NCBI GenBank assembly: GCA_964344355.1
Contig: CAYFNE010000016.1
Span: 4,344-68,343 of the forward strand
Direction of reading: 5' to 3'
Length of the DNA stretch: 64,000 bases
Origin: an uncultured Magnetococcales bacterium
Lineage (GTDB): Bacteria > Pseudomonadota > Magnetococcia > Magnetococcales > CAYFNE01
Shown here: positions 27,801-56,600 of the stretch, one piece after another
Numbering within the stretch: position 1 is the first letter of the stretch
Layout: each line of letters starts with the position of its first letter
Made by a program: the position numbers and the translations under genes
The notes under the pieces: generated by a model
Seen by the model: only the letters and a program-made list of their open reading frames with translations
What the model was told of the DNA's origin: nothing
The model's database searches: none

Positions 27801-29132
27801 CTGCCCGGCCTGTTGCGGTCGATGATGCCGCTCTATCAAAAACTGGCGCAGAAAAAAAATATCTTCTGCCATCTCGACATGGCCCCCGACCTGCCCCGTT
27901 TCGTCCGCGGGGATCCAACGCGGCTGCAACAGATTCTGGTCAATCTGATCACCAATGGCATCAAGTTCACCAGCGATGGCGGTGTCACCCTGATCGTTAC
28001 CGGCGGTCCCCCGGAAACCGGTCGTGCCGGCCTCATCTTTCAGGTGCGGGACACCGGCATCGGTATTTTTCCGGGCAAACTGTCCAAACTGTTCAACGCC
28101 TTTTCCCAGGCGGACAGCTCCACCACCCGCAAATATGGCGGTACCGGTCTCGGGTTGGCCATTTCAAAACGGTTGGCCCGGTTGATGGGCGGGGATGTGA
28201 CCGTCAAAAGCACCCCGGGAAAGGGCAGTGCCTTCACCCTGCGGGTCACCCTGCCTTTGGCCGGTCGGGCGGAGACCGAAGTGATCCTCCGGGAAAACCG
28301 GGCGTTGTCGCGGGACCTCCCGAAAGCGGTACGGGTCCTGGTGGTGGAGGATGAATCGATCAACCGTTCGGTCATTCAGGCCATGTTGGTCAGCCTCGGT
28401 TTTTCGGCCGATATCGCCGTCAACGGCAGGGAGGCCCTGGAGCGGTTGCATCGGAACCGTTACGACCTGGTGCTGATGGATTGTCAGATGCCGGAGATGG
28501 ACGGATTCGATACCACCCGGAATCTTCGCGCCCGGGAACAGGGATTGGACGGCCACCGTCACACCCCGGTGGTGGCCCTGACCGCTTATGCCATGAAGGG
28601 AGACCGGGAAAAATGTCTGGCCGCCGGGATGGATGATTATCTGGCCAAACCGGTGCGCAAGCGGGCATTGCGGGCGCTGCTCTCCCGTTGGCTCGGTGAA
28701 ACGGGCAATGGAAAGGGTGGGCCGGGCTCCGGTTCGTCTCCCCCGGAACCGCAGCAACCCCGGGGGCCGGCCCCACCACCCGAGGAAGAGATCCTGGACA
28801 AACGGGTATTGGCCGATCTGCAGGAGGAGATGGGGGATGCCTTCGTGTTGATCGTGGAAAAATTTCTTGAAAGCCTGCCGCACCATTTGGCCCGCATCGA
28901 GGAGTCCCTGGCCCGGGAAAGCCCCGTGAGTGTGGCCGAGACCTGCCACAAGCTGAAAGGCACCTCCAGTCAACTCGGCGCCAAACGGCTCGCCGACCGG
29001 ACCAAGGCGTTGGAGCAAATGGGACGTGCCGCGAACATGACCGGGGCCGTGAGCGAATTTTCCGGGTTGCGGCAAGAGGTGCAACGGACGGAACAGGCCT
29101 TTCGGCGGCTGCTCTCTTCCACGGATCCGTAA
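24873..29132 (+). CDS. Large hybrid sensor histidine kinase (GAF, multiple PAS, GAF, PAS, HisKA, HATPase_c, REC, HPt)
   Basis: It has the H-box [21 protein letters not shown] boxes ([24 protein letters not shown]), REC ([27 protein letters not shown]) and HPt ([16 protein letters not shown]). ATG 24873 with a GGGAGGGA RBS was chosen over the track start at 24690. Confidence 0.9.
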
Positions 29133-29185
29133 CCACCGCCCGTTCCGTCTGACCGTTTTTTTCAACAGGGTCATCCTGTTTGGGC

Positions 29186-29213
29186 TTTGACATTAGAAAA
29201 ATACATATTATAA
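29186..29213 (+). promoter_or_regulatory. Near-consensus sigma-70 promoter (TTGACA-16 nt-TATAAT)
   Basis: TTGACA at 29186-29191, a 16-nt spacer and TATAAT at 29208-29213, about 150 nt upstream of ATG 29363. Such matches arise more easily by chance in AT-rich DNA. Confidence 0.4.
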
Positions 29214-29362
29214 TTTCTGTTCATTTTAGTTTATTTTCACAAAAGTGATTGTCAGGATTTTCCTTTAACATCAAAGATTCAAGTATCGACAACACATGAA
29301 ATTCAATGTGATCGTGTCAACAAAAATGTCAATCAAAAGGGATCATTTTTGGGGCGAAAATC

Positions 29363-31243
29363 ATGACAAGCATATTCAATGCGGAACTTCCAGATTACGA
29401 GAAAGTGAAAGAGATCGTCAACAAAAAGAATTTTGAAAGAAAAGTGGTGGAGGCTCTTGAGAGTATAGAAAATGATATTATCGTCGCCCGAGACAAAGGC
29501 GTCGACAGAAAGGGGCAGGATCCATATTTTCCGCCTGTCTATCTCACTAAAAGGCGGGTCAAATCCCAGTACAGCGCCTTTCTGAAAACCAAAAGAAAAA
29601 TGCGTAAAGATCTGAATTTTATCAGAGATTATGCAGGCATCCGAATTCTTGTATTGTTTGATGACGATCTGATCGAGATCTTTAGATTCATGCTTACCGA
29701 TGTCATCGATCCCGGTTTGCTGGAAGAGGTTACTCTTTTCAATCTGCCAGAGCATCTTGTTAAAAACATAAAATCCGACTCTTCGCTCAAAAAACACTTG
29801 GAAAAGGGTTTTAAGTTGGAGGAAAAACATGATCATTTTAGAGTTATCGATCGACAGTCTGGCTACCAATCAATTCATTTCGTGTTCCGACAGACCATAA
29901 AACAAACAAATAACTTCTACGAAGGTGAAAAGTCAATTTATGGGACGGTCTCCAGCGATGATTTCTTCATAGAAGCACAGGTTCGCACGCTGTTACAAGA
30001 CGTTTGGTCAGAAATGGAGCATAAACTGGCCTATAAACAGGGCAAGGCAAATCCTCATATTTCTACGAGCTTCAAGTTATTGCAAGAGGATATCTCTACC
30101 ATGGGGCGGAGACTCACCAATATCCAATCCATGAGAAACAGCCATTTGTCACTGGATCATCTGGCCATTCGCGAATCTCGTCCGTACTCATATTTTCAAT
30201 ATGAAAAAGACTGGGAGCCAATGGTTTTTTTGCGGGAAAAGCTTGACGATGATTGCATAAATGAGGCAAAAAGATATGAAGATCTTACAAAAAAATATCA
30301 GGATGGAGAAATCAATCCTGGTTATTTTTGCGAAAAGGCAATGGACTCCGTAGACAAGCTCTTTAAATGTTTCAAGAAGTATATTGAAAATGCCGATCAG
30401 GACAGTGATGATAAAGTTCGTTATTGGTATTTGATGGAAAAAGGTTTCATTGAGTTTCTTGCCAAAAACTACGGAAAAGCGCGCGAATCGTACGAAAAAA
30501 TTTTGAATGATAAAACGTTTGATGGACAGCCTGTGCCGCTCTTTCGGCGAACAGAACTGAATTTCGTTGCGGAAGAAGGTTTGGATGAAAAAGATCTCAT
30601 TCCCTGTCTGGAAGGGTTCGATAAGGTAATTGAACGCATCAAAATCTTGCATGACTCCGGGGGCATGTCCGATGTTGCCAGGGAAAATGGTGCTGCCATA
30701 CTGACCAAAATTGCCGCCATCTACGAGTTGATGGGAGCGGAGGAATATCTGGATTTTTGCATCAGTCTACTGGAGGAGGCGGTTGAACTCCTCTCTGGGA
30801 GAAAAGGGAAAAAGGGTCGAAAAAACAAACTGCTATTTGCCAGAAACAATTTGGGGTGGGTGTATCTCGAAAAGTTCAGGACTTGTAAGAAAAACGAGAA
30901 GCGAGGATGGCACGAAAAATGCGTCAATGAAGTGAGGCCGCTTTATAAAGAGGTCAAGAAGGCCTTTCAGGAGGATCCGGAGCAGTTTACAAGCAATGTG
31001 TACGATACTTTGTCCTGGTTTTTTTACCAGTCGCATGTCTTCCTGAATGATCCGGCATACGGAAAGACCGTCATTTCCTCGCCGATGCTCCGGCCACCCG
31101 GCAAAAAGGACCTGTTGACCACGGCCCAACTTTTTTGCGGCTTGGTCTGGCGGGTGAAAAACAGAAGCTCCTTCCTGGTCAGCAGCGTCAGCCGCCAGAG
31201 GAGTCGAGCTGAACTCATCATGAATCCGAATGTCAAAAGGTGA
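29363..31243 (+). CDS. RelA/SpoT-family (small alarmone synthetase-like) nucleotide pyrophosphokinase domain fused to a ~400-aa helical/TPR-like C-terminal region
   Basis: 626-aa ORF. All synthetase-fold motifs are present in order: R65-V-K..S71...K75, D89xxG92xR94 (IRDYAGIRILV), G167-YQSIH172, and E204-AQVRTLLQDVWSEMEHKLAYK225. There is no HD hydrolase domain. The C-terminal two-thirds is helical-repeat-like (e.g. YWYLMEKGFIEFLAKNYGKARESYEKIL). Confidence 0.8.
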   Translation: MTSIFNAELPDYEKVKEIVNKKNFERKVVEALESIENDIIVARDKGVDRKGQDPYFPPVYLTKRRVKSQYSAFLKTKRKMRKDLNFIRDYAGIRILVLFDDDLIEIFRFMLTDVIDPGLLEEVTLFNLPEHLVKNIKSDSSLKKHLEKGFKLEEKHDHFRVIDRQSGYQSIHFVFRQTIKQTNNFYEGEKSIYGTVSSDDFFIEAQVRTLLQDVWSEMEHKLAYKQGKANPHISTSFKLLQEDISTMGRRLTNIQSMRNSHLSLDHLAIRESRPYSYFQYEKDWEPMVFLREKLDDDCINEAKRYEDLTKKYQDGEINPGYFCEKAMDSVDKLFKCFKKYIENADQDSDDKVRYWYLMEKGFIEFLAKNYGKARESYEKILNDKTFDGQPVPLFRRTELNFVAEEGLDEKDLIPCLEGFDKVIERIKILHDSGGMSDVARENGAAILTKIAAIYELMGAEEYLDFCISLLEEAVELLSGRKGKKGRKNKLLFARNNLGWVYLEKFRTCKKNEKRGWHEKCVNEVRPLYKEVKKAFQEDPEQFTSNVYDTLSWFFYQSHVFLNDPAYGKTVISSPMLRPPGKKDLLTTAQLFCGLVWRVKNRSSFLVSSVSRQRSRAELIMNPNVKR

Positions 31244-31929
31244 AGGAGGTTACGTTATTTTTTTACCGGTTTTCAAGAAGGTTTTCTGTTGACACTCTAC
31301 CACCGTTCGTTCAGCATTCGAGATCCGTCCCTGTAGGGATAAGTGGTTCAAGCCATGCACGGGGCGGTATCCGGAGAGAGTTGAGAAAAGGAGGGTTTCA
31401 TGCGTGATATTATGGGTTTGTGAATTATCGCTCTGTCGTGTGGAAGCATCTGCCTTGAATATGGAACGGTGCCGGGAAAGGAACGGAGTCACTACCGACA
31501 GAGCGGAACGGTCCTTTCCCGGGCAAGGCCTCTCTCCTGACCATGCAGCGGATGCTGTTCAGGGCGTTCTCAGGTGAGCGGGGGGTTCCGGCACCGTTCG
31601 GGCGTCCTGCCGGAACGAACGGTCGGAACAACCGATCATCTTCCGGTTCGGTCGCCCGTGTGCTGATATCAATTCAGGGCGAAACTGTCCCCAGACTGCC
31701 CCCGCGCCGCTGTTTTTCCAGATACCATCTGACCTTTTTCCAATGAATCATGAATCGGTTCCAAAGTTTTCGCACTGTCAGCATTTTTGACAGGTGGCGG
31801 TTTTTTTGGCACCGGAAACCGTGCTGACTCGCTTTCCAATGACGTGAGCATGTGGGCGAGGAAATTCCGGAGGGATCTGTAAGGTCCCGGCTTTGATCGC
31901 GAAGTATGACGATCCATAATAGTGCGGCG

Positions 31930-32577: not shown

Positions 32578-35500
32578 TCATGCGTCGAACAGGGTCACCC
32601 GCTCCACCACCAGGCTGCCCTGTTTCACCACCCCTTCGACGTGCCAGGGTCCCCGATGTTTCAATCCCGGTCCCAGGTGCCGGATCACGGCGGGGAACAA
32701 AATGGTCTCGATGAGACCGGTACGGTCGGAAAGGGTCAGAAAGGCCATCGGTTCGCCCTTTTTCGTCAACATCGATTTGCGCGCCACCGGCAGGCCGACG
32801 CCGCCACCGCGTTGCCCTTCTCGCAGCCGCGCCAGACGGCGCGCCGGCAGCACCCGGTTTTGCAATGGCAGCAGGGTGTGCCGGTAGAGCCGCAACGGAT
32901 GATCGGCGAGCGCCAATCCCAGGGCGGTCATCTCGCGCCGGATCCGGGCCTCCACACTTTCCGGGGGCGGCGCCACAGGTTCTTCCCGTTCCGCATCCGC
33001 ATCATCGAACAGCGCCAACTCCGGTTGCCGATTGTGCCCGTTATGATGAAAATTTTCCACCGTCCACAGCCGTTGCCGCCGTTCGGCGGCGTTGACCGGT
33101 CCGCACAGTTCGTCCGTGGCCCCCGACAGCACCAACATCGCCGCCACCTCCCGATCCGGGACCAGACGCCGCAATAGATCCGGCCAATCGGCGAACGGGC
33201 GGCGGTCGATCAACGTCGCCACCGTTTTTTCGTTCAGGTTGGCCACCCACTGCAAACCCATGCGGATGGTGCGGTCGTCCAAGGCTTCGGTGTGCCAGCT
33301 CCCGGCCACCACGCAGGGGGGGACGAGGCGGATACCGAGCCAGCGGGCGGCGTCCACATAGACCTGCGGATGATAATAGCCCCCCTGGTTGCTCAATACC
33401 GCCGCGAAAAAGATCGCCGGATGGTGGCTGCGCAACCAGGCCATCTGATAGCTGAGACGGGCGAAACTGGCCGAGTGTGCCTTGCAAAAGGCATAACCGG
33501 CGAAGGAGACGATCTGTTTCCACAACGCCTCGGCCCGTTGTTCCGCCATGCCACCGGCCAGGGCGCCGTCGAAAAAACGGTCCCGATAGAGGTTGAGATC
33601 CTCGTGGTGGCGTTTTTTGCCCATGGCGCGGCGCAACAAATCGGCCTCGCCGAGGCTCATGCCGGCGACCGTCGCCACGGTCTGGATGACCTGCTCCTGA
33701 TAGACCAGAATGCCATGGGTCTCTTCGAGAAATGGCCGCAGGCGGGGATCGGGATAGTGGGCGGGCTCCTCACCGCGGTGACGGCGGATGAAGGCATCCA
33801 TGAGTCCGCCCTGATTGACGCCGGGCCGGATGATCGAGCTGGCGGCGACCAGGGTTTCATAATCCCGGCAGGCCAACCGTTTGAGCACGCCGCGCATGGA
33901 GGGGGATTCGATGTAGAAGCAACCCAGGGTCTCCCCCCGGGCGATCAATGCGTTGGTGGCGGCGTCGGCCATGGCCGCTTCCGGGCACAGCCCGCCTTCT
34001 GGATCGGTTTCGTCCCGCCGGTTCAGCACCGTCAGGGCGTCGGCCAGGGCGCCCATGGAACGGTTGCCGAGGAGGTCGATCTTGATCAATCCCAGGTCTT
34101 CCGCCGGTCCCATGGAACCGTCGGTGGCCGGCCAGTCCGACGGCGATGGCACCACCGGCATCACATCGCGCACCGGCACCCCGGCGACGGCGATGCCACA
34201 GGGGTGGATGCCGAAATGGCGTGGCAGACCGGCCAGTTGTCGGGCCACCGGCCACATGCCGCGCCAGGGCGGTTGGTCCAGGGGGATGCCACGATAGACC
34301 GGATGGTTCGAGACCAGGGCCTCCTCCAGATGGCGCAGGGAGCCCCAGGGCAGTTTTTTGGCGAATGAATCGATGGTTGCCGGCGGTATGCCGAGGGCAT
34401 GGCCGATCTCCCGGAACAGTCCCCGGGTCTTGAAGGTTTGAAAGGCGCCGACCAGGGCGACGTTTTCGGCGCCGAACCGTTCCAGGATGAAACGCAACAT
34501 CTCCTCGCGCCGATCCCAGGGCAGATCGAGATCGATATCCGGTGGATCGAGCCGTTCCGGATTGAGAAACCGTTCAAAAAACAGATTGTGCCGCACCGGA
34601 TCGACATGGGTGATGCCCAGGGCGTAGGCGACGGTGGAGTTGGCCGCCGAACCGCGCCCCAACACCGGCATGCCGCGCCGCACCGCTTCACGGACGATTT
34701 CGTCGACCACCAGGAAATAACCGGCGTAACCCATGCGGTTGATGACCGCCAACTCCCGCTGGCAGCGCCGCAGGGCCTCCATGGGGATGGCCGGATGATA
34801 ACGGCGCGCCAATCCGGCCATGGTGCGGTCGGTGAGCAGGGTTTCCGGCGGATCGGCGCCGGGAAACGGTGGAAACAGCGGCCGGCCCAGGGTCGGGGTG
34901 AAATCGCACCGTTCGGCGATGCGCCGGCCGTTGGCCAGCGCTCCCGGCAGATGCCGGAAACGATCGGCCAGGGTGGTATCCGCCAGGATGGCGCCGGCCG
35001 CGGCGCCGTCATCGTCGGTCAAACGGTGTACCGTCGTTGCCCGGGCCAACGCCCGCAACACCCGGTGGGCGGTCAAGCCGGCGCTGGAAACCGCCACCGC
35101 GTCGGTGGCGGCCAGCAACGGCACCCGGTGTTGACGGGCCATCTCCAACAGCAGATCGTTGTTTTTGCGCAAAAGGGGGGAGCTGTCCGGCAGCCGTGGC
35201 CGGATGCGCGCATGGAGCCGTTGTTCGCCGCGGCGCCAGGCGGGTATCTGCAACGTCCTGGCCAACCACAAGGCCGAGCCCGGCAGGGCCATCAACGATT
35301 CCGCCGCCGCGGTCACCGCCCGCCAACCGGCCTGCCGGTCCCCCCGCCGCCAGTCGGAGACCGCCCGGCAGAGCGCCGGCCAGCCATGGCCGTCGGCCAC
35401 CAACAGCACCAGCCCGGGATCCCGCTCCCCCAGGGTGAGGGTGACGCCGACGATGGGGTGAATCCCGGCGCCGGCGGCCGCCTGCACGAAGGGGACGATG

Positions 35501-35631
35501 CCGGCCAGGGTTTCGCGGTCGGTCAGGGCCAGGGCCGGCAATCGTTGTTCGCGGGCGGCCTCCACCCACCGTTCGGGCGTATCGACCCCCTCCAACAGGG
35601 AAAAGGCGCTGCGCACCGACAGGGGAATCAT
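32578..35631 (-). CDS. dnaE2: Error-prone DNA polymerase III alpha-like subunit DnaE2 (ImuC)
   Basis: 1017-aa ORF with an N-terminal PHP domain (SAFSLLEGV..), a Pol IIIalpha core and a C-terminal OB region. Its start overlaps the imuB stop by 4 nt. Confidence 0.9.
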   Translation of the reverse strand: MIPLSVRSAFSLLEGVDTPERWVEAAREQRLPALALTDRETLAGIVPFVQAAAGAGIHPIVGVTLTLGERDPGLVLLVADGHGWPALCRAVSDWRRGDRQAGWRAVTAAAESLMALPGSALWLARTLQIPAWRRGEQRLHARIRPRLPDSSPLLRKNNDLLLEMARQHRVPLLAATDAVAVSSAGLTAHRVLRALARATTVHRLTDDDGAAAGAILADTTLADRFRHLPGALANGRRIAERCDFTPTLGRPLFPPFPGADPPETLLTDRTMAGLARRYHPAIPMEALRRCQRELAVINRMGYAGYFLVVDEIVREAVRRGMPVLGRGSAANSTVAYALGITHVDPVRHNLFFERFLNPERLDPPDIDLDLPWDRREEMLRFILERFGAENVALVGAFQTFKTRGLFREIGHALGIPPATIDSFAKKLPWGSLRHLEEALVSNHPVYRGIPLDQPPWRGMWPVARQLAGLPRHFGIHPCGIAVAGVPVRDVMPVVPSPSDWPATDGSMGPAEDLGLIKIDLLGNRSMGALADALTVLNRRDETDPEGGLCPEAAMADAATNALIARGETLGCFYIESPSMRGVLKRLACRDYETLVAASSIIRPGVNQGGLMDAFIRRHRGEEPAHYPDPRLRPFLEETHGILVYQEQVIQTVATVAGMSLGEADLLRRAMGKKRHHEDLNLYRDRFFDGALAGGMAEQRAEALWKQIVSFAGYAFCKAHSASFARLSYQMAWLRSHHPAIFFAAVLSNQGGYYHPQVYVDAARWLGIRLVPPCVVAGSWHTEALDDRTIRMGLQWVANLNEKTVATLIDRRPFADWPDLLRRLVPDREVAAMLVLSGATDELCGPVNAAERRQRLWTVENFHHNGHNRQPELALFDDADAEREEPVAPPPESVEARIRREMTALGLALADHPLRLYRHTLLPLQNRVLPARRLARLREGQRGGGVGLPVARKSMLTKKGEPMAFLTLSDRTGLIETILFPAVIRHLGPGLKHRGPWHVEGVVKQGSLVVERVTLFDA

Positions 35632-36779
35632 GGCGGAGGACCGATGCGGACCGCCTCGGCGCCGAAACGGCCGCGGATGGCATCCAGGGTTTCATCCAGT
35701 CCCCGGCGCAACAGGGGGGAGGACCGTTCCAACGGTGCGAACAGGTTTTCATCGCGATAACGGCGGGTTTCGGTCACGGTCAGGGTGAGGCGCCGGATCA
35801 ACACCCGCCGGCTGCGCAATCGGTGCAATCCGTCCCAGACCGATGCCAGCAGGCCCATGGTGCGGTCTTCCGGTGGATCCAGAATGATTTTTCGGCGGTG
35901 GCGGGGTCCATCCCACTCTTCCAGTTCCAACGTGACGACGGCGATGAACACCCGCTCCCGTCGTGCCGCCAGTCCCAGATGATTGCAGGCCTCGACCAGC
36001 AGGGCACGCAACGGGGGATCCTTTTGACGGTGGATGCCGGGGTGAAGGGTGATGGTGGTCGGTTCGGCCACGGTCGCCGTCGGTTGGATCGGCGTCGTAT
36101 CGTGGCCCAGTCCCCAGGCCCGCCACAGGCGCGCCCGTTTACCGAAGGCGCGTACCAGACGTTCCTCCGGACAGCGCACCAGATGACCGACCGAGGTCAA
36201 ACCCAGACGGTGCAACCGTTTGGCCAGGGCCGTCCCCACCCCCGGCAACACCGTCACCGGCAACGGCGCCAAAAACCGTTGCTCCTGGCCGGGAAAAATA
36301 CGCAACAGACGCATGTGCGCCCGTCGGGCGGCGGTCTCCGCCATGCGCGCCATGGCCGGATTGCCGCCGATACCGCTCAGGGGGGTCACTTTCAAATCAT
36401 TTTCCAGGTCCCGCAACACCCGGTCCCAGGTGACGGTCTCCGCCGCCCGATGGACGCCCCGGGTGCCGGACAGTTCCACCAACCACTGTCCGGCGTCTCT
36501 CTCCGCCACCAGGGGCGTGGCATCCAACAACCGTTCGGCGACCACCCGGCGGATGCGCGCCTCCCATTCGGGCCGTCGCGGCCGGATGATCAGGGCCGGA
36601 TGCAACCGGTCCACCGCCAACCCCGGATGCGCCCCCAATCGCCTGGCGGCCCGGTTCAGATCGACCACCCGCCCCTGCTGAACCACCACCAACGGCGCTT
36701 CATCGGCCACGGCCCCGGCCCGCCGCACCGCCGCCAACGGCAAATGCGGCAACCGCAACGCCGCCACCGTCCGGTTCAT
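35628..36779 (-). CDS. imuB: ImuB, Y-family-polymerase-like mutagenesis protein
   Basis: The protein from MNRTVAALRLPHLPLAAVRR.. has a typical ImuB N-terminus and Y-family fold without clear catalytic acidic residues. Start chosen at ATG 36779; the track start at 36917 adds an implausible hydrophobic extension. Confidence 0.8.
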   Translation of the reverse strand: MNRTVAALRLPHLPLAAVRRAGAVADEAPLVVVQQGRVVDLNRAARRLGAHPGLAVDRLHPALIIRPRRPEWEARIRRVVAERLLDATPLVAERDAGQWLVELSGTRGVHRAAETVTWDRVLRDLENDLKVTPLSGIGGNPAMARMAETAARRAHMRLLRIFPGQEQRFLAPLPVTVLPGVGTALAKRLHRLGLTSVGHLVRCPEERLVRAFGKRARLWRAWGLGHDTTPIQPTATVAEPTTITLHPGIHRQKDPPLRALLVEACNHLGLAARRERVFIAVVTLELEEWDGPRHRRKIILDPPEDRTMGLLASVWDGLHRLRSRRVLIRRLTLTVTETRRYRDENLFAPLERSSPLLRRGLDETLDAIRGRFGAEAVRIGPPP

Positions 36780-37269: not shown

Positions 37270-37860
37270 GTGGCCATTTCTTTGTCAAAAGGACAACGGG
37301 TTTCCCTGGAGAAGGAGACCGGCAAAAAGCTGGACCGGATCATCATGGGGTTGGGCTGGGATGTCCGGCAAAAGGAAAAAAAGGGCTTTTTCGGTTTTCT
37401 CTCCGGCGGTGGCGGCAGCATCGATCTGGATGCCTCGGTGGGCCTGTTCGACGCCGGCGGCGGCCTGGTCGATCAGGTGTGGTTCCGGCAGTTGCAGAGC
37501 CGGGACGGATCGGTGCGGCATACCGGGGACAATGTGACCGGAGAAGGGGAAGGGGATGATGAACAGATCCTGGTCTCCCTCAGCCAGGTCCCGGCCAATG
37601 TACAGGCGATGGTGTTCGTCGTCAGTTCCTACTCCAGCGACACCTTCGATGAAATCGACAACGCCTACTGCCGTATGGTGGATGCCAGCGACAACACGGA
37701 AATCCTGCGTTACGCCCTCTCCGGCCAGGGCAGTCATACCGCGCAGATCATGGTCAGCGTCTACCGCAAGAATGGTGGCTGGTCGGTCCGTGCCATCGGT
37801 GAAAAATCCCAGGGGCGCACCATCCAGGATCTGACCGCGCAGATGAGCCGGAACATTTGA
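37270..37860 (+). CDS. TerD-family stress protein
   Basis: It has (V)AISLSKGQRVSLEK..MGLGWD.. and the [15 protein letters not shown] calcium-binding motif. A GTG start at 37270 follows a GAGGAGGA RBS; the track starts at TTG 37246. Confidence 0.85.
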   Translation: MAISLSKGQRVSLEKETGKKLDRIIMGLGWDVRQKEKKGFFGFLSGGGGSIDLDASVGLFDAGGGLVDQVWFRQLQSRDGSVRHTGDNVTGEGEGDDEQILVSLSQVPANVQAMVFVVSSYSSDTFDEIDNAYCRMVDASDNTEILRYALSGQGSHTAQIMVSVYRKNGGWSVRAIGEKSQGRTIQDLTAQMSRNI

Positions 37861-37929
37861 TCACCAGCCCCGTTATCGGCGCACTTCCATTCAACGAGCC
37901 ATACAACCCACTCGTCAAGGAGCACGTTC

Positions 37930-38508
37930 ATGTCCGTATCTCTCTCAAAAGGCGGTAATGTTTCCCTGTCCAAAGAGGCCCCCGGCATCAAGGCCATTTT
38001 GCTCGGTCTCGGCTGGGACGCCCGGGCCACCGATGGTCAGGATTTCGACCTGGACGCCGTGGCCTTCATCCTGAACGCCAACGGCAAGGTTCGTTCCGAC
38101 TCCGATTTCATCTTTTACAACAACAAGGTCGGTGCCAACGGCGCCGTACAGCACCAGGGCGACAACCGCACCGGTGAAGGGGAAGGCGATGATGAGCAGG
38201 TGATGATGAACCTGGAAGGGTTTCCCACCGATGCCGAAAAGGTGGTCCTGGCGGTCACCATTCATGAAGGGGATACCCGCGGTCAAAATTTCGGCCAGGT
38301 CAACAATGCCTTCATCCGCGTCGTCAACGCCGATGGCAACAAGGAGATCGCCCGTTATGATCTCAGCGAGGACGCCTCCACCGAAACGGCGATGATTTTC
38401 GGCGAGGTCTACCGGCGCAACAACGAGTGGAAATTTCGCGCCGTCGGCCAGGGTTTCGCCGGAGGACTCGGACCGCTGGCGCGCAATTTTGGCGTTGACG
38501 TCGGTTAA
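37930..38508 (+). CDS. terD: TerD-family stress protein
   Basis: [59 protein letters not shown] is canonical TerD sequence. Confidence 0.9.
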
Positions 38509-38624
38509 ACCGGCCAAAGATCGGCCAAGCGAATGAACCGGGAGAGGGGTACGGCGATTCCCCCTCTCCCGCTGATGGCTCAGACCCCCCGTTCAGCCGT
38601 CCACCTCGGAGGACAATCCACATC

Positions 38625-39368
38625 ATGGTCTCTTCATCTCGTTCCGGAACCAACTGGGAGGAGCGCGGACAACGCGCGGTCGGTGCGGCGGCGGACCTGA
38701 CCGCCGGTCTCATTAAGGGTTTCCGCTCCCTGGGCGGTCGCATTCAGGCGGCCCGTTTTCAATCAGTCATCGATGGATTTTGTGCCTCGGCCGGTTTGGT
38801 GGCGGCGCAGAACGGCCGCCTGAAGCGGGAGGAAGTTGAAGGTTTCCGCCGATTTCTGGTCGAAAACCGGCAACATCCGGTATTGGGCCATTTCGCGCCC
38901 GACGAGCTGGTCGATAAATTTCGCGATTATGCCGTCAAGGCCTTTCTGGAGGATGATGAAGCCTTCGTGCGGGTGTTGGATCAAATCCCCAAACGGTCGG
39001 AAGAGGCCAACCTGATCCTGACCGGCTGTCTGGCGGTGGTCTATGCCGATGGTCATTGTGATCAACTGGAACAGACGCAGATCGAAAAGCTGGCCCGGGA
39101 CCTGGGGGTCAATCTCAAACAGTTGTCGGACAACATGCAGGTATCGTTGCCACCACCCGATCCCCCGGCCTTGCCGACACCGAGGGCCGGTGGCAGCCGT
39201 TTCACCCAGTCGATGAGCAGCGCCCCGCCGCCGCCCCGCCCGGAACCGGCTCCGGCACCGGAACCCCCACCGCCTCCCGCCACCCCGGCGGCGGCCAACC
39301 GCGCCGCCTGCACCTTTTGCAATGGCAAGGGGTGTGCCTTTTGCGGCAATACCGGTTTCGCCAAATAG
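38625..39368 (+). CDS. TerB-like domain protein with Pro-rich linker and C-terminal DnaJ-type CxxCxGxG zinc ribbon
   Basis: 247-aa ORF. The central region (VIDGFCASAGLVAAQNG..LILTGCLAVVYADGHCDQLEQTQIEKLARDLG) resembles the TerB/tellurite-resistance fold. The C-terminus reads CTFCNGKGCAFCGNTG. Confidence 0.6.
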   Translation: MVSSSRSGTNWEERGQRAVGAAADLTAGLIKGFRSLGGRIQAARFQSVIDGFCASAGLVAAQNGRLKREEVEGFRRFLVENRQHPVLGHFAPDELVDKFRDYAVKAFLEDDEAFVRVLDQIPKRSEEANLILTGCLAVVYADGHCDQLEQTQIEKLARDLGVNLKQLSDNMQVSLPPPDPPALPTPRAGGSRFTQSMSSAPPPPRPEPAPAPEPPPPPATPAAANRAACTFCNGKGCAFCGNTGFAK

Positions 39369-56192: not shown

Positions 56193-56600
56193 AACCGACA
56201 ACCACTCCGGAAACAGGGCACTTTTTCCCCGTCGTTCCGCCTGCCGGGCCCGGTTGAAATCGGCCACCGCCCGCTCCTCCCGGCCCAGGGCGCGCCAGAT
56301 GTTGCCCCGGTTTCGGTAAGCCTCGGTATTCTCCGGATCCAGTTCGATGGCCCGGGTCAAATCGGCCAGGGCCCGAACCCGGTCCCCCTGATGCCACCGG
56401 GCCACCCCCCGGTCATTATACACCTTGGCGGCGGTACCGTCCCAGACCGCCGGGTGGTTGAGACAGTGGTTCAACCGTTGAATCCGCCGCTCCAGGTCCG
56501 GTTCCCCCGCCAACTCCCGGCAATCGTTCTGCAACAACAGCCAGGCAAAGCCACCAATGGCGAGCAGGCCGAGAACCATCATCTTCAGGGCGGAGCTCAT
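56181..56600 (-). CDS. Membrane-anchored TPR protein
   Basis: The 139-aa version starts at MSSALKMMVLGLLAIGGFAWLLL (ATG 56600), followed by TPR units (YNDRGVARWHQGDRVRALADLTRAIELDPENTEAYRNRGNIW). The track ORF's N-terminal extension runs into repeat copy B. Confidence 0.65.
   Translation of the reverse strand: MSSALKMMVLGLLAIGGFAWLLLQNDCRELAGEPDLERRIQRLNHCLNHPAVWDGTAAKVYNDRGVARWHQGDRVRALADLTRAIELDPENTEAYRNRGNIWRALGREERAVADFNRARQAERRGKSALFPEWLSVLWP

Follow-up and report, generated by a model that had tools for sequence, protein, structure and literature searches.

A single gene stands on an AT-rich islet in the DNA analysed here, a 64-kb window (the whole stretch studied) from an uncultured Magnetococcales bacterium. 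The locus raises the question of what this gene encodes and whether its product belongs to stress regulation or to defence. An earlier note had described it as a toxSAS-like (toxic small alarmone synthetase) defence or stress module. In our analysis the gene appeared, with about an even chance that this is right, to be a horizontally acquired, self-contained small alarmone synthetase (SAS) gene, whose product would be a (p)ppGpp-type synthetase gated by a fused alpha-solenoid on ligand binding. The features of the islet are as follows.

29133 to 31243, no strand: AT-rich islet, GC 0.423 against 0.610 for the remainder of the window
29187 to 29214, plus strand: sigma-70-type promoter-like site TTGACA-16-TATAAT, 12 of 12 hexamer matches, 148 nt 5' of the start codon
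29363 to 31243, plus strand: gene for a 626-aa small alarmone synthetase and solenoid protein (P0001), the sole open reading frame (ORF) of the islet
31244 to 31929, no strand: 690-bp spacer of intermediate GC (0.51-0.55) ahead of the convergent flavin-reductase gene

As shown by sliding-window analysis, the composition dropped directly after the hybrid-kinase stop at 29132, where the earlier note had placed the change. In 400-nt windows the GC content fell from 0.59-0.64 at 28000-29199 to 0.37-0.45 at 29000-30799; it recovered only beyond about 31600 and reached 0.47-0.55 by 31800. In 1-kb windows the islet was the sole part of the 64 kb below 0.5 GC, and the remainder varied around its mean with a standard deviation of 0.035 and a minimum of 0.517. 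GC content at third codon positions (GC3) was 0.50 in the synthetase-solenoid gene compared with 0.74-0.80 in the kinase, flavin-reductase and DnaE2 genes. The islet DNA is compositionally foreign. A vertically inherited Magnetococcales housekeeping SAS, of the ordinary DsRel or RelP/RelQ type, could owe such a look to its amino-acid composition, and FYMINK residues (F, Y, M, I, N and K) did make up 33% of P0001 compared with 15-19% of the products of neighbouring genes, which lowers GC at first and second codon positions. However, GC3 was also 25-30 points under that of the neighbours, and the anomaly therefore goes beyond an amino-acid effect.

The gene lay between non-coding gaps of 230 bp on one side and 690 bp on the other, with no partner gene and, as the earlier note had observed, no adjacent hydrolase or antitoxin gene. 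Its promoter-like site, described there as near-consensus, is perfect in both hexamers. The consensus match was not kept in the homologue loci, and the upstream regions of the four closest homologues could not be aligned, so that no common leader or promoter was found among them.

The domain organisation of P0001 was determined with Pfam and NCBIfam profiles, an AlphaFold model and Foldseek comparisons.

29363 to 30097, plus strand: RelA/SpoT nucleotide pyrophosphokinase domain, residues 1-245, alpha/beta fold, all Syn motifs intact
30026 to 30130, plus strand: hinge or linker helix between the domains, residues 222-256, low confidence (predicted local distance difference test, pLDDT, below 50)
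30218 to 31222, plus strand: tetratricopeptide repeat (TPR)-like alpha-solenoid of 14 helices, residues 286-620 (AlphaFold model, Foldseek)

Pfam RelA_SpoT (PF04607) matched P0001 with 49.1 bits (E 7.8e-13, cut-off 27). All four catalytic motifs that had been read from the sequence were present, namely R65xK67xxxS71xxxK75, D89xxG92xR94, G167-Y168-x-S170-x-H172 and E204xQ206xR208-T209...W215...H220...Y224-K225. These Syn motifs showed no variation in 12 homologues and were conserved to 97% or more among 117 full-length members of the family. No HD, TGS or ACT domain was found in P0001 with Pfam and NCBIfam, in agreement with the claim that a hydrolase domain was missing. With a RelA/SpoT domain over threshold, intact Syn motifs and none of the three domains that define the long RelA/SpoT homologues (RSHs), P0001 falls by sequence in the SAS class.

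The AlphaFold model (pLDDT 80.9; predicted template modelling score, pTM, 0.81) was all-helical over residues 247-620, and the TPR-like helical C-terminus claimed in the earlier note was thereby borne out. For the catalytic part, the best Foldseek matches were the ppGpp synthetases SAS1/RelQ (5ded, E 2e-5) and SAS2/RelP (6ewz), which were also the top solved relatives by sequence; CapRel (7ztb, E 3e-3) was a weaker third structural match. The helical part matched TPR-type solenoids including LGN, BamD, Acl4 and 14-3-3, although Pfam TPR models gave only sub-threshold matches on P0001 and no relatives of the solenoid were found by sequence in the PDB. Conserved polar or aromatic positions of the solenoid include Y354, E359, Y377, R395, F419-D420, G458, N495, D548-T549 and W552. 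Two inserts set apart a Magnetococcales-type subclade (P0001-P0005, 625-657 aa), a loop in the catalytic beta-sheet region at about residues 178-199 (window 29894-29959) and a Pro/Gly-rich segment near the C-terminus at about 560-583 (window 31040-31111). Both are missing from the majority of family members, which are 520-580 aa long. The only PADLOC match was to the candidate system PDC-S33 (20.8 bits, E 5.4e-5), in which residues 135-245 were aligned with positions 105-210 of a 349-position model; membership of PDC-S33 was rejected, since the match is confined to the catalytic core and does not extend over the full length.

We also considered a silent or decaying foreign gene that has no current function in its host. 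The un-ameliorated composition and the long non-coding spacer downstream are what such a gene might leave. However, the ORF is full-length with every catalytic and every solenoid-conserved residue kept, a perfect promoter-like site is present, and the identical protein was found in several assemblies of one metagenome project (at least two more runs or assemblies, ERZ930070 and ERR2281803). A dead gene is scarcely credible in view of this evidence.

To place the catalytic domain among the SASs, we used labelled sequences from about 17 of the 30 SAS subfamilies (supplement of PMC10434055) as references. A hidden Markov model (HMM) of the family's catalytic domain scored 69-87 bits with MixRel, 62-84 with DsRel, 66-79 with RelP, 68-69 with RelQ and 68 with BdRel. 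On the toxSAS side it gave 30-40 bits with CapRel, 25 with PhRel, 11 with PhRel2 and 9 with FpRel2, and no match was reported for FaRel. Profile comparison by hhalign resulted in the same division, with scores of 180 for DsRel (E 2.4e-27), 164 for RelP, 158 for MixRel and 124 for RelQ against 80 for PhRel, 78 for CapRel, 31 for FaRel, 27 for PhRel2 and 23 for FpRel2. The family's catalytic profile matched the Marispirochaeta DsRel with a probability of 98.9. Mean identity was 24-27% to the DsRel, RelP, RelQ, MixRel, BdRel and AaRel references compared with 16-21% to CapRel, PhRel, PhRel2, FaRel and FpRel2. Membership of a validated toxSAS subfamily was rejected because these five families gave the lowest scores by both methods, and the toxSAS-like label of the earlier note found no support in the comparison. 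By sequence, the nearest SAS families to the catalytic domain thus appear to be non-toxic alarmone synthetases.

A neighbour-joining tree (196 columns, 200 bootstraps), which is a rough method with limited reference sampling, recovered the family as monophyletic (0.845) and DsRel as monophyletic without it (0.965). Membership of DsRel was rejected at the clade level, as the family fell outside the DsRel clade and the solenoid HMM missed the DsRel TPRs. Searched against 8 DsRel sequences, this HMM detected no TPR (E 0.9 or worse). An hhalign comparison of the solenoid with the DsRel TPRs gave a probability of 60% (E 8.7e-5, 86 columns), a marginal result at the level of generic TPR similarity. 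The family motif LQDVW was missing from the entire 2023 labelled SAS reference set.

The SAS-TPR architecture, which the earlier note could not name, is that of DsRel, whose type is Tde-SAS (TDE1711) of Treponema denticola, a tetrameric protein of 410 aa (PMC10434055). Tde-SAS prefers GDP as acceptor and produces ppGpp, and its C-terminal four-TPR domain of about 180 aa brakes ppGpp synthesis (PMC10434055). DsRel and the family have in common an N-terminal SAS domain of about 220-260 aa, a flexible linker helix, C-terminal TPR-type repeats and the signature RT(I/L)LQD(A/V)WxExEHxLxYK. The hinge of P0001 is in a position comparable to the protease-sensitive linker of Tde-SAS (PMC10434055). DsRel is the likely model for a repeat domain acting as a brake. 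The two differ in size, DsRel having four canonical TPRs (about 180 aa) in 410 aa and the family a solenoid of 300-365 aa in proteins of 520-660 aa. They also differ in genomic role, since Tde-SAS stands in for a long RSH in its host whereas the family behaves as a mobile accessory gene.

RelP and RelQ (SAS2 and SAS1) share the catalytic fold and motifs with the family and have profile scores similar to those of DsRel. In contrast to the family, they are single-domain proteins of 210-250 aa with no fused sensor and are regulated by tetramerisation and by allosteric pppGpp or RNA. RelP and RelQ are largely vertically inherited and occur mainly in Firmicutes.

CapRel(SJ46) is a fused toxin-antitoxin toxSAS with a C-terminal autoinhibitory and sensor region (PMC9712102). 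Like P0001, it combines an N-terminal RSH synthetase fold and a C-terminal region in one polypeptide with no separate antitoxin gene. However, the C-terminus of CapRel is a small pseudo-zinc-finger domain and CapRel pyrophosphorylates tRNA (PMC9712102), and its catalytic domain is farther from that of the family than those of the non-toxic families (30-40 against 62-87 bits by HMM). A CapRel-type C-terminus was rejected for P0001, in which this region is an all-alpha TPR-like solenoid.

The architecture class of SAS plus TPR and its chemistry are already known. Judged by its sequences, the family nevertheless appears to be a distinct and apparently undescribed SAS subfamily, closest to DsRel in catalytic sequence and design but neither DsRel nor toxSAS. 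No paper describing a synthetase-solenoid subfamily, its large solenoid or its mobile, AT-rich behaviour was found in a literature search.

The extent of the family was estimated with a solenoid-only profile. Exhaustive HMMER searching returned 255 cluster representatives. Of these, 156 matched at E<=1e-30, and the family accordingly comprises 156 or more clusters at 50% identity, nearly all of them known from uncultured bacteria. Among the 150 best solenoid matches and three added close homologues, all but 13 contained the same synthetase, either complete or N-terminally cut; the 13 were short proteins starting at or just before the solenoid. Swapping of the solenoid domain was rejected, because every one of these matches that has sequence N-terminal of the solenoid has the same RSH domain. 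The synthetase is the solenoid's constant partner, so that the solenoid cannot be regarded as an exchangeable sensor cassette; it has co-evolved with the enzyme. The catalytic domain is the best conserved part, with a mean pairwise identity of 43%, compared with 30% for the solenoid and 22% for the linker. Despite this divergence, 31 solenoid positions, many of them polar or aromatic, were at least 80% conserved, a pattern in keeping with a single ligand or interface common to the members. A second protein search by word index, with 150 sequences, resulted in no useful addition.

Members were found in Magnetococcales, Thiohalobacteraceae, Desulfuromonadales, other 'Deltaproteobacteria', the cultured Solidesulfovibrio aerotolerans DSM 16695, Nitrospirota, Chlorobiaceae, Chloroherpetonaceae, Bacteroidetes and Patescibacteria. 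Homologues in four other Magnetococcales assemblies (71, 49, 35 and 31% identity) could be taken as the trace of vertical inheritance in this order, as expected of a housekeeping SAS. However, the genomic context differed in all Magnetococcales copies, the family lies outside the DsRel clade, and most genomes lack it: a pattern scan of 185,579 species genomes returned only 14 family loci. Together with the low GC3, these results make a vertically inherited housekeeping enzyme very improbable.

To examine neighbourhoods and mobility, we compared about 40 distinct loci, 16 from the homologue and pattern searches and about 25 further metagenome loci. The gene occupied a different position in every genome. 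Its GC content was below that of the flanks by 5-25 points in 15 of 15 loci, with the same result in the metagenome loci, and host GC across the homologue loci ranged from 0.30 to 0.66. In all of these loci (the window, L005-L007, L009-L019 and L026-L056) the gene was never above its flanks and usually 4-25 points under them; it approached flank GC (less than 1 point apart) only where the host itself was at about 0.24-0.28. The family moves horizontally, and its low GC suggests either that AT-rich donors have supplied it continually or that a low GC content is under selection, for example to keep expression low or the gene silenced.

All-against-all BLAST of the neighbours in the roughly 40 loci revealed no conserved partner and no antitoxin-like neighbour, whereas toxSAS toxin-antitoxin modules have a conserved antitoxin gene beside them that usually overlaps. 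Apart from one pair of loci, shared neighbours came only from near-duplicate contigs. In that pair (L046:1037-1747 and L048:7213-7893) the family gene is preceded at 87 nt, on the same strand, by a gene for a protein of 227-237 aa that lacks Pfam domains and is 89% identical between the two loci. This sharing probably comes from relatedness of the genomes and not from a partnership common to the family.

In two very AT-rich loci (L050:2198-3061, plus strand, and L051:222-677, plus strand), the family gene adjoins a gene for an '8xMP' membrane-domain protein (PF24838). In L050 this protein is encoded 77 nt downstream on the same strand and is fused to an N-terminal HD_4 segment of the RelA/SpoT-hydrolase type, similar to the PbcSpo2 small alarmone hydrolases (E 5e-8). 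The 8xMP neighbour may be an alarmone hydrolase, an antitoxin or an alarmone-responsive membrane partner in one subclade.

We propose the following mechanism for the gated synthetase. The N-terminal domain would transfer pyrophosphate from ATP to the 3'-OH of a purine nucleotide, most likely converting GDP or GTP to (p)ppGpp, possibly with minor ppApp. A (p)ppGpp-type product is indicated because the catalytic domain has its affinity to DsRel, RelP, RelQ and MixRel and because one locus has an HD_4 hydrolase-like neighbour, as might be expected if the alarmone can be hydrolysed. The solenoid, about 340 residues long, would act as a regulatory or sensor module that packs against the enzyme and holds its activity low. 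Gating of this kind is inferred on three grounds: Tde-SAS sets a precedent for it, the two domains are packed together with confidence in the model (pTM 0.81 for the whole chain, which suggests a defined arrangement), and groove-like residues of the solenoid are conserved. Binding of a ligand, probably a protein or peptide, would release the enzyme, and the output would be an alarmone pulse that slows growth.

Several points weigh against this proposal. The substrate of a synthetase cannot be read from sequence, and the braking function is assigned by analogy with Tde-SAS, to whose TPR domain the solenoid has marginal similarity at best. The neighbour-joining tree, with its references from about 17 of 30 subfamilies, leaves the deep SAS branching unsettled. 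In addition, the gene is rare and patchy, AT-rich relative to its host in nearly every locus and often in flexible regions, features that would be looked for in accessory or defence genes more than in core stress regulators.

The last point leads to defence. About 10 of the roughly 40 loci adjoin restriction, TIR, toxin-antitoxin or mobile-element genes (a raw count made with no background control), including the following.

L017:4538-9253: TIR-STAND(DUF7779)-TPR protein (916 aa) and HSDR_N protein directly upstream of the Chlorobiaceae member; DDE transposase
L033:1186-2106: CAP12/Pycsar-type TIR protein, ending 18 nt before the family gene
L021, L048 and L042: type I restriction-modification genes
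L038: PLD-ResIII-DUF3427
L006: GIY-YIG, EVE and SNase genes
L010, L028 and L031: integrase, transposase or primase-polymerase

It is possible that P0001 is a single-gene abortive-infection system in which the solenoid would keep the synthetase inhibited and also detect a phage protein, much as in CapRel, DSR2 or Avs. The released enzyme would poison the cell through overproduction of alarmones, depletion of ATP or pyrophosphorylation of tRNA. An effector joined to a repeat sensor behind its own strong promoter-like site would suit such a system, as would CapRel as a secondary fold match, a GC content never above the flanks, a different position in every genome and the rare, patchy distribution across Magnetococcales, Gammaproteobacteria, Desulfobacterota-type lineages, Nitrospirota, Chlorobi, Bacteroidetes and Patescibacteria. 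The quarter or so of loci beside defence or mobile-element genes is suggestive, not decisive. However, the remaining three quarters or so are ordinary metabolic neighbourhoods, with neighbours such as glycogen phosphorylase, FAD oxidases, UvrA, cytochromes and sigma-54, and the catalytic domain lies close to the non-toxic families and a long way from all of the validated toxSAS ones. Among defence models the single PADLOC match is the 20.8-bit one to candidate PDC-S33. No family copy was found in viral contigs (IMG/VR), phage genomes or plasmids, from which only unrelated SAS catalytic cores were returned. We consider abortive infection unlikely on balance, though with an appreciable probability.

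DSR2 (SIR2-solenoid) and Avs (STAND-TPR) share with the family the design of an enzyme effector fused to a trigger-binding alpha-solenoid. They differ in effector chemistry, an NTPase switch is not present in the family, and neither an experimental nor a strong genomic link between it and defence was found. A variant of the defence proposal, about as probable, is a new single-protein anti-phage system in which the large TPR-like solenoid would recognise a phage protein and free a RelP/DsRel-type synthetase. Its weapon would be (p)ppGpp chemistry of the ordinary kind and not an activity specialised as in the toxSAS enzymes. If this were true, the family-wide AT-richness would reflect continual horizontal flow via defence islands. 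The stress and sensor part of the earlier description is reasonable for a stand-alone, synthetase-only RSH with helical repeats on foreign DNA; its defence part is neither established nor dismissed by these results.

The solenoid-gated alarmone synthetase, our preferred reading, would be of interest in several respects. About 30 SAS subfamilies are distinguished and few are characterised, and the synthetase-solenoid family adds an apparently undescribed one. It combines a housekeeping-type catalytic core and a dedicated solenoid of 300-365 residues with the genomic behaviour of a mobile accessory gene. This combination bears on why bacteria hold extra SASs and on where regulatory alarmone synthesis ends and toxic or defensive synthesis begins. 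A concrete starting point for finding the trigger is given by the polar residues conserved in the solenoid groove, and the cultured carrier S. aerotolerans DSM 16695 (L019) makes experiments feasible.

The surroundings of the islet gave no sign of how it was inserted. As the earlier note had found, no integrase, tRNA or flanking direct repeat was seen: there was no integrase among the called genes within about 10 kb of the gene and no tRNA in the 64-kb window, and repeats flanking the islet were at chance level only. An Rfam scan of 28.5-32.6 kb gave no match, and no convincing ORF, RNA family or terminator was found in the spacer at 31244-31929. Short inverted repeats were located in the spacer at 31464-31475 / 31588-31599 and at 31472-31485 / 31509-31522, and their fold was no better than that of shuffled sequences (z = -1.07).

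The window neighbours of the gene are the hybrid kinase, the flavin reductase and ImuB-DnaE2. In an empty-site and synteny comparison, for which no close relative was at hand, the closest flavin-reductase homologues were only about 60% identical and lay in unrelated contexts in Magnetococcales assemblies. A TPR-encoding stretch at about 56247-56429 on the minus strand has 37-39% identity over about 60 aa to the DsRel TPR domain but lacks an RSH domain and probably belongs to an unrelated TPR protein. The ImuB-DnaE2 error-prone polymerase cassette adjoins the flavin-reductase gene, and beyond it come a TerD-TerD-TerB stress cluster and a CheX/hemerythrin gene (window 32578-36779, minus strand, and 37270-39368, plus strand).

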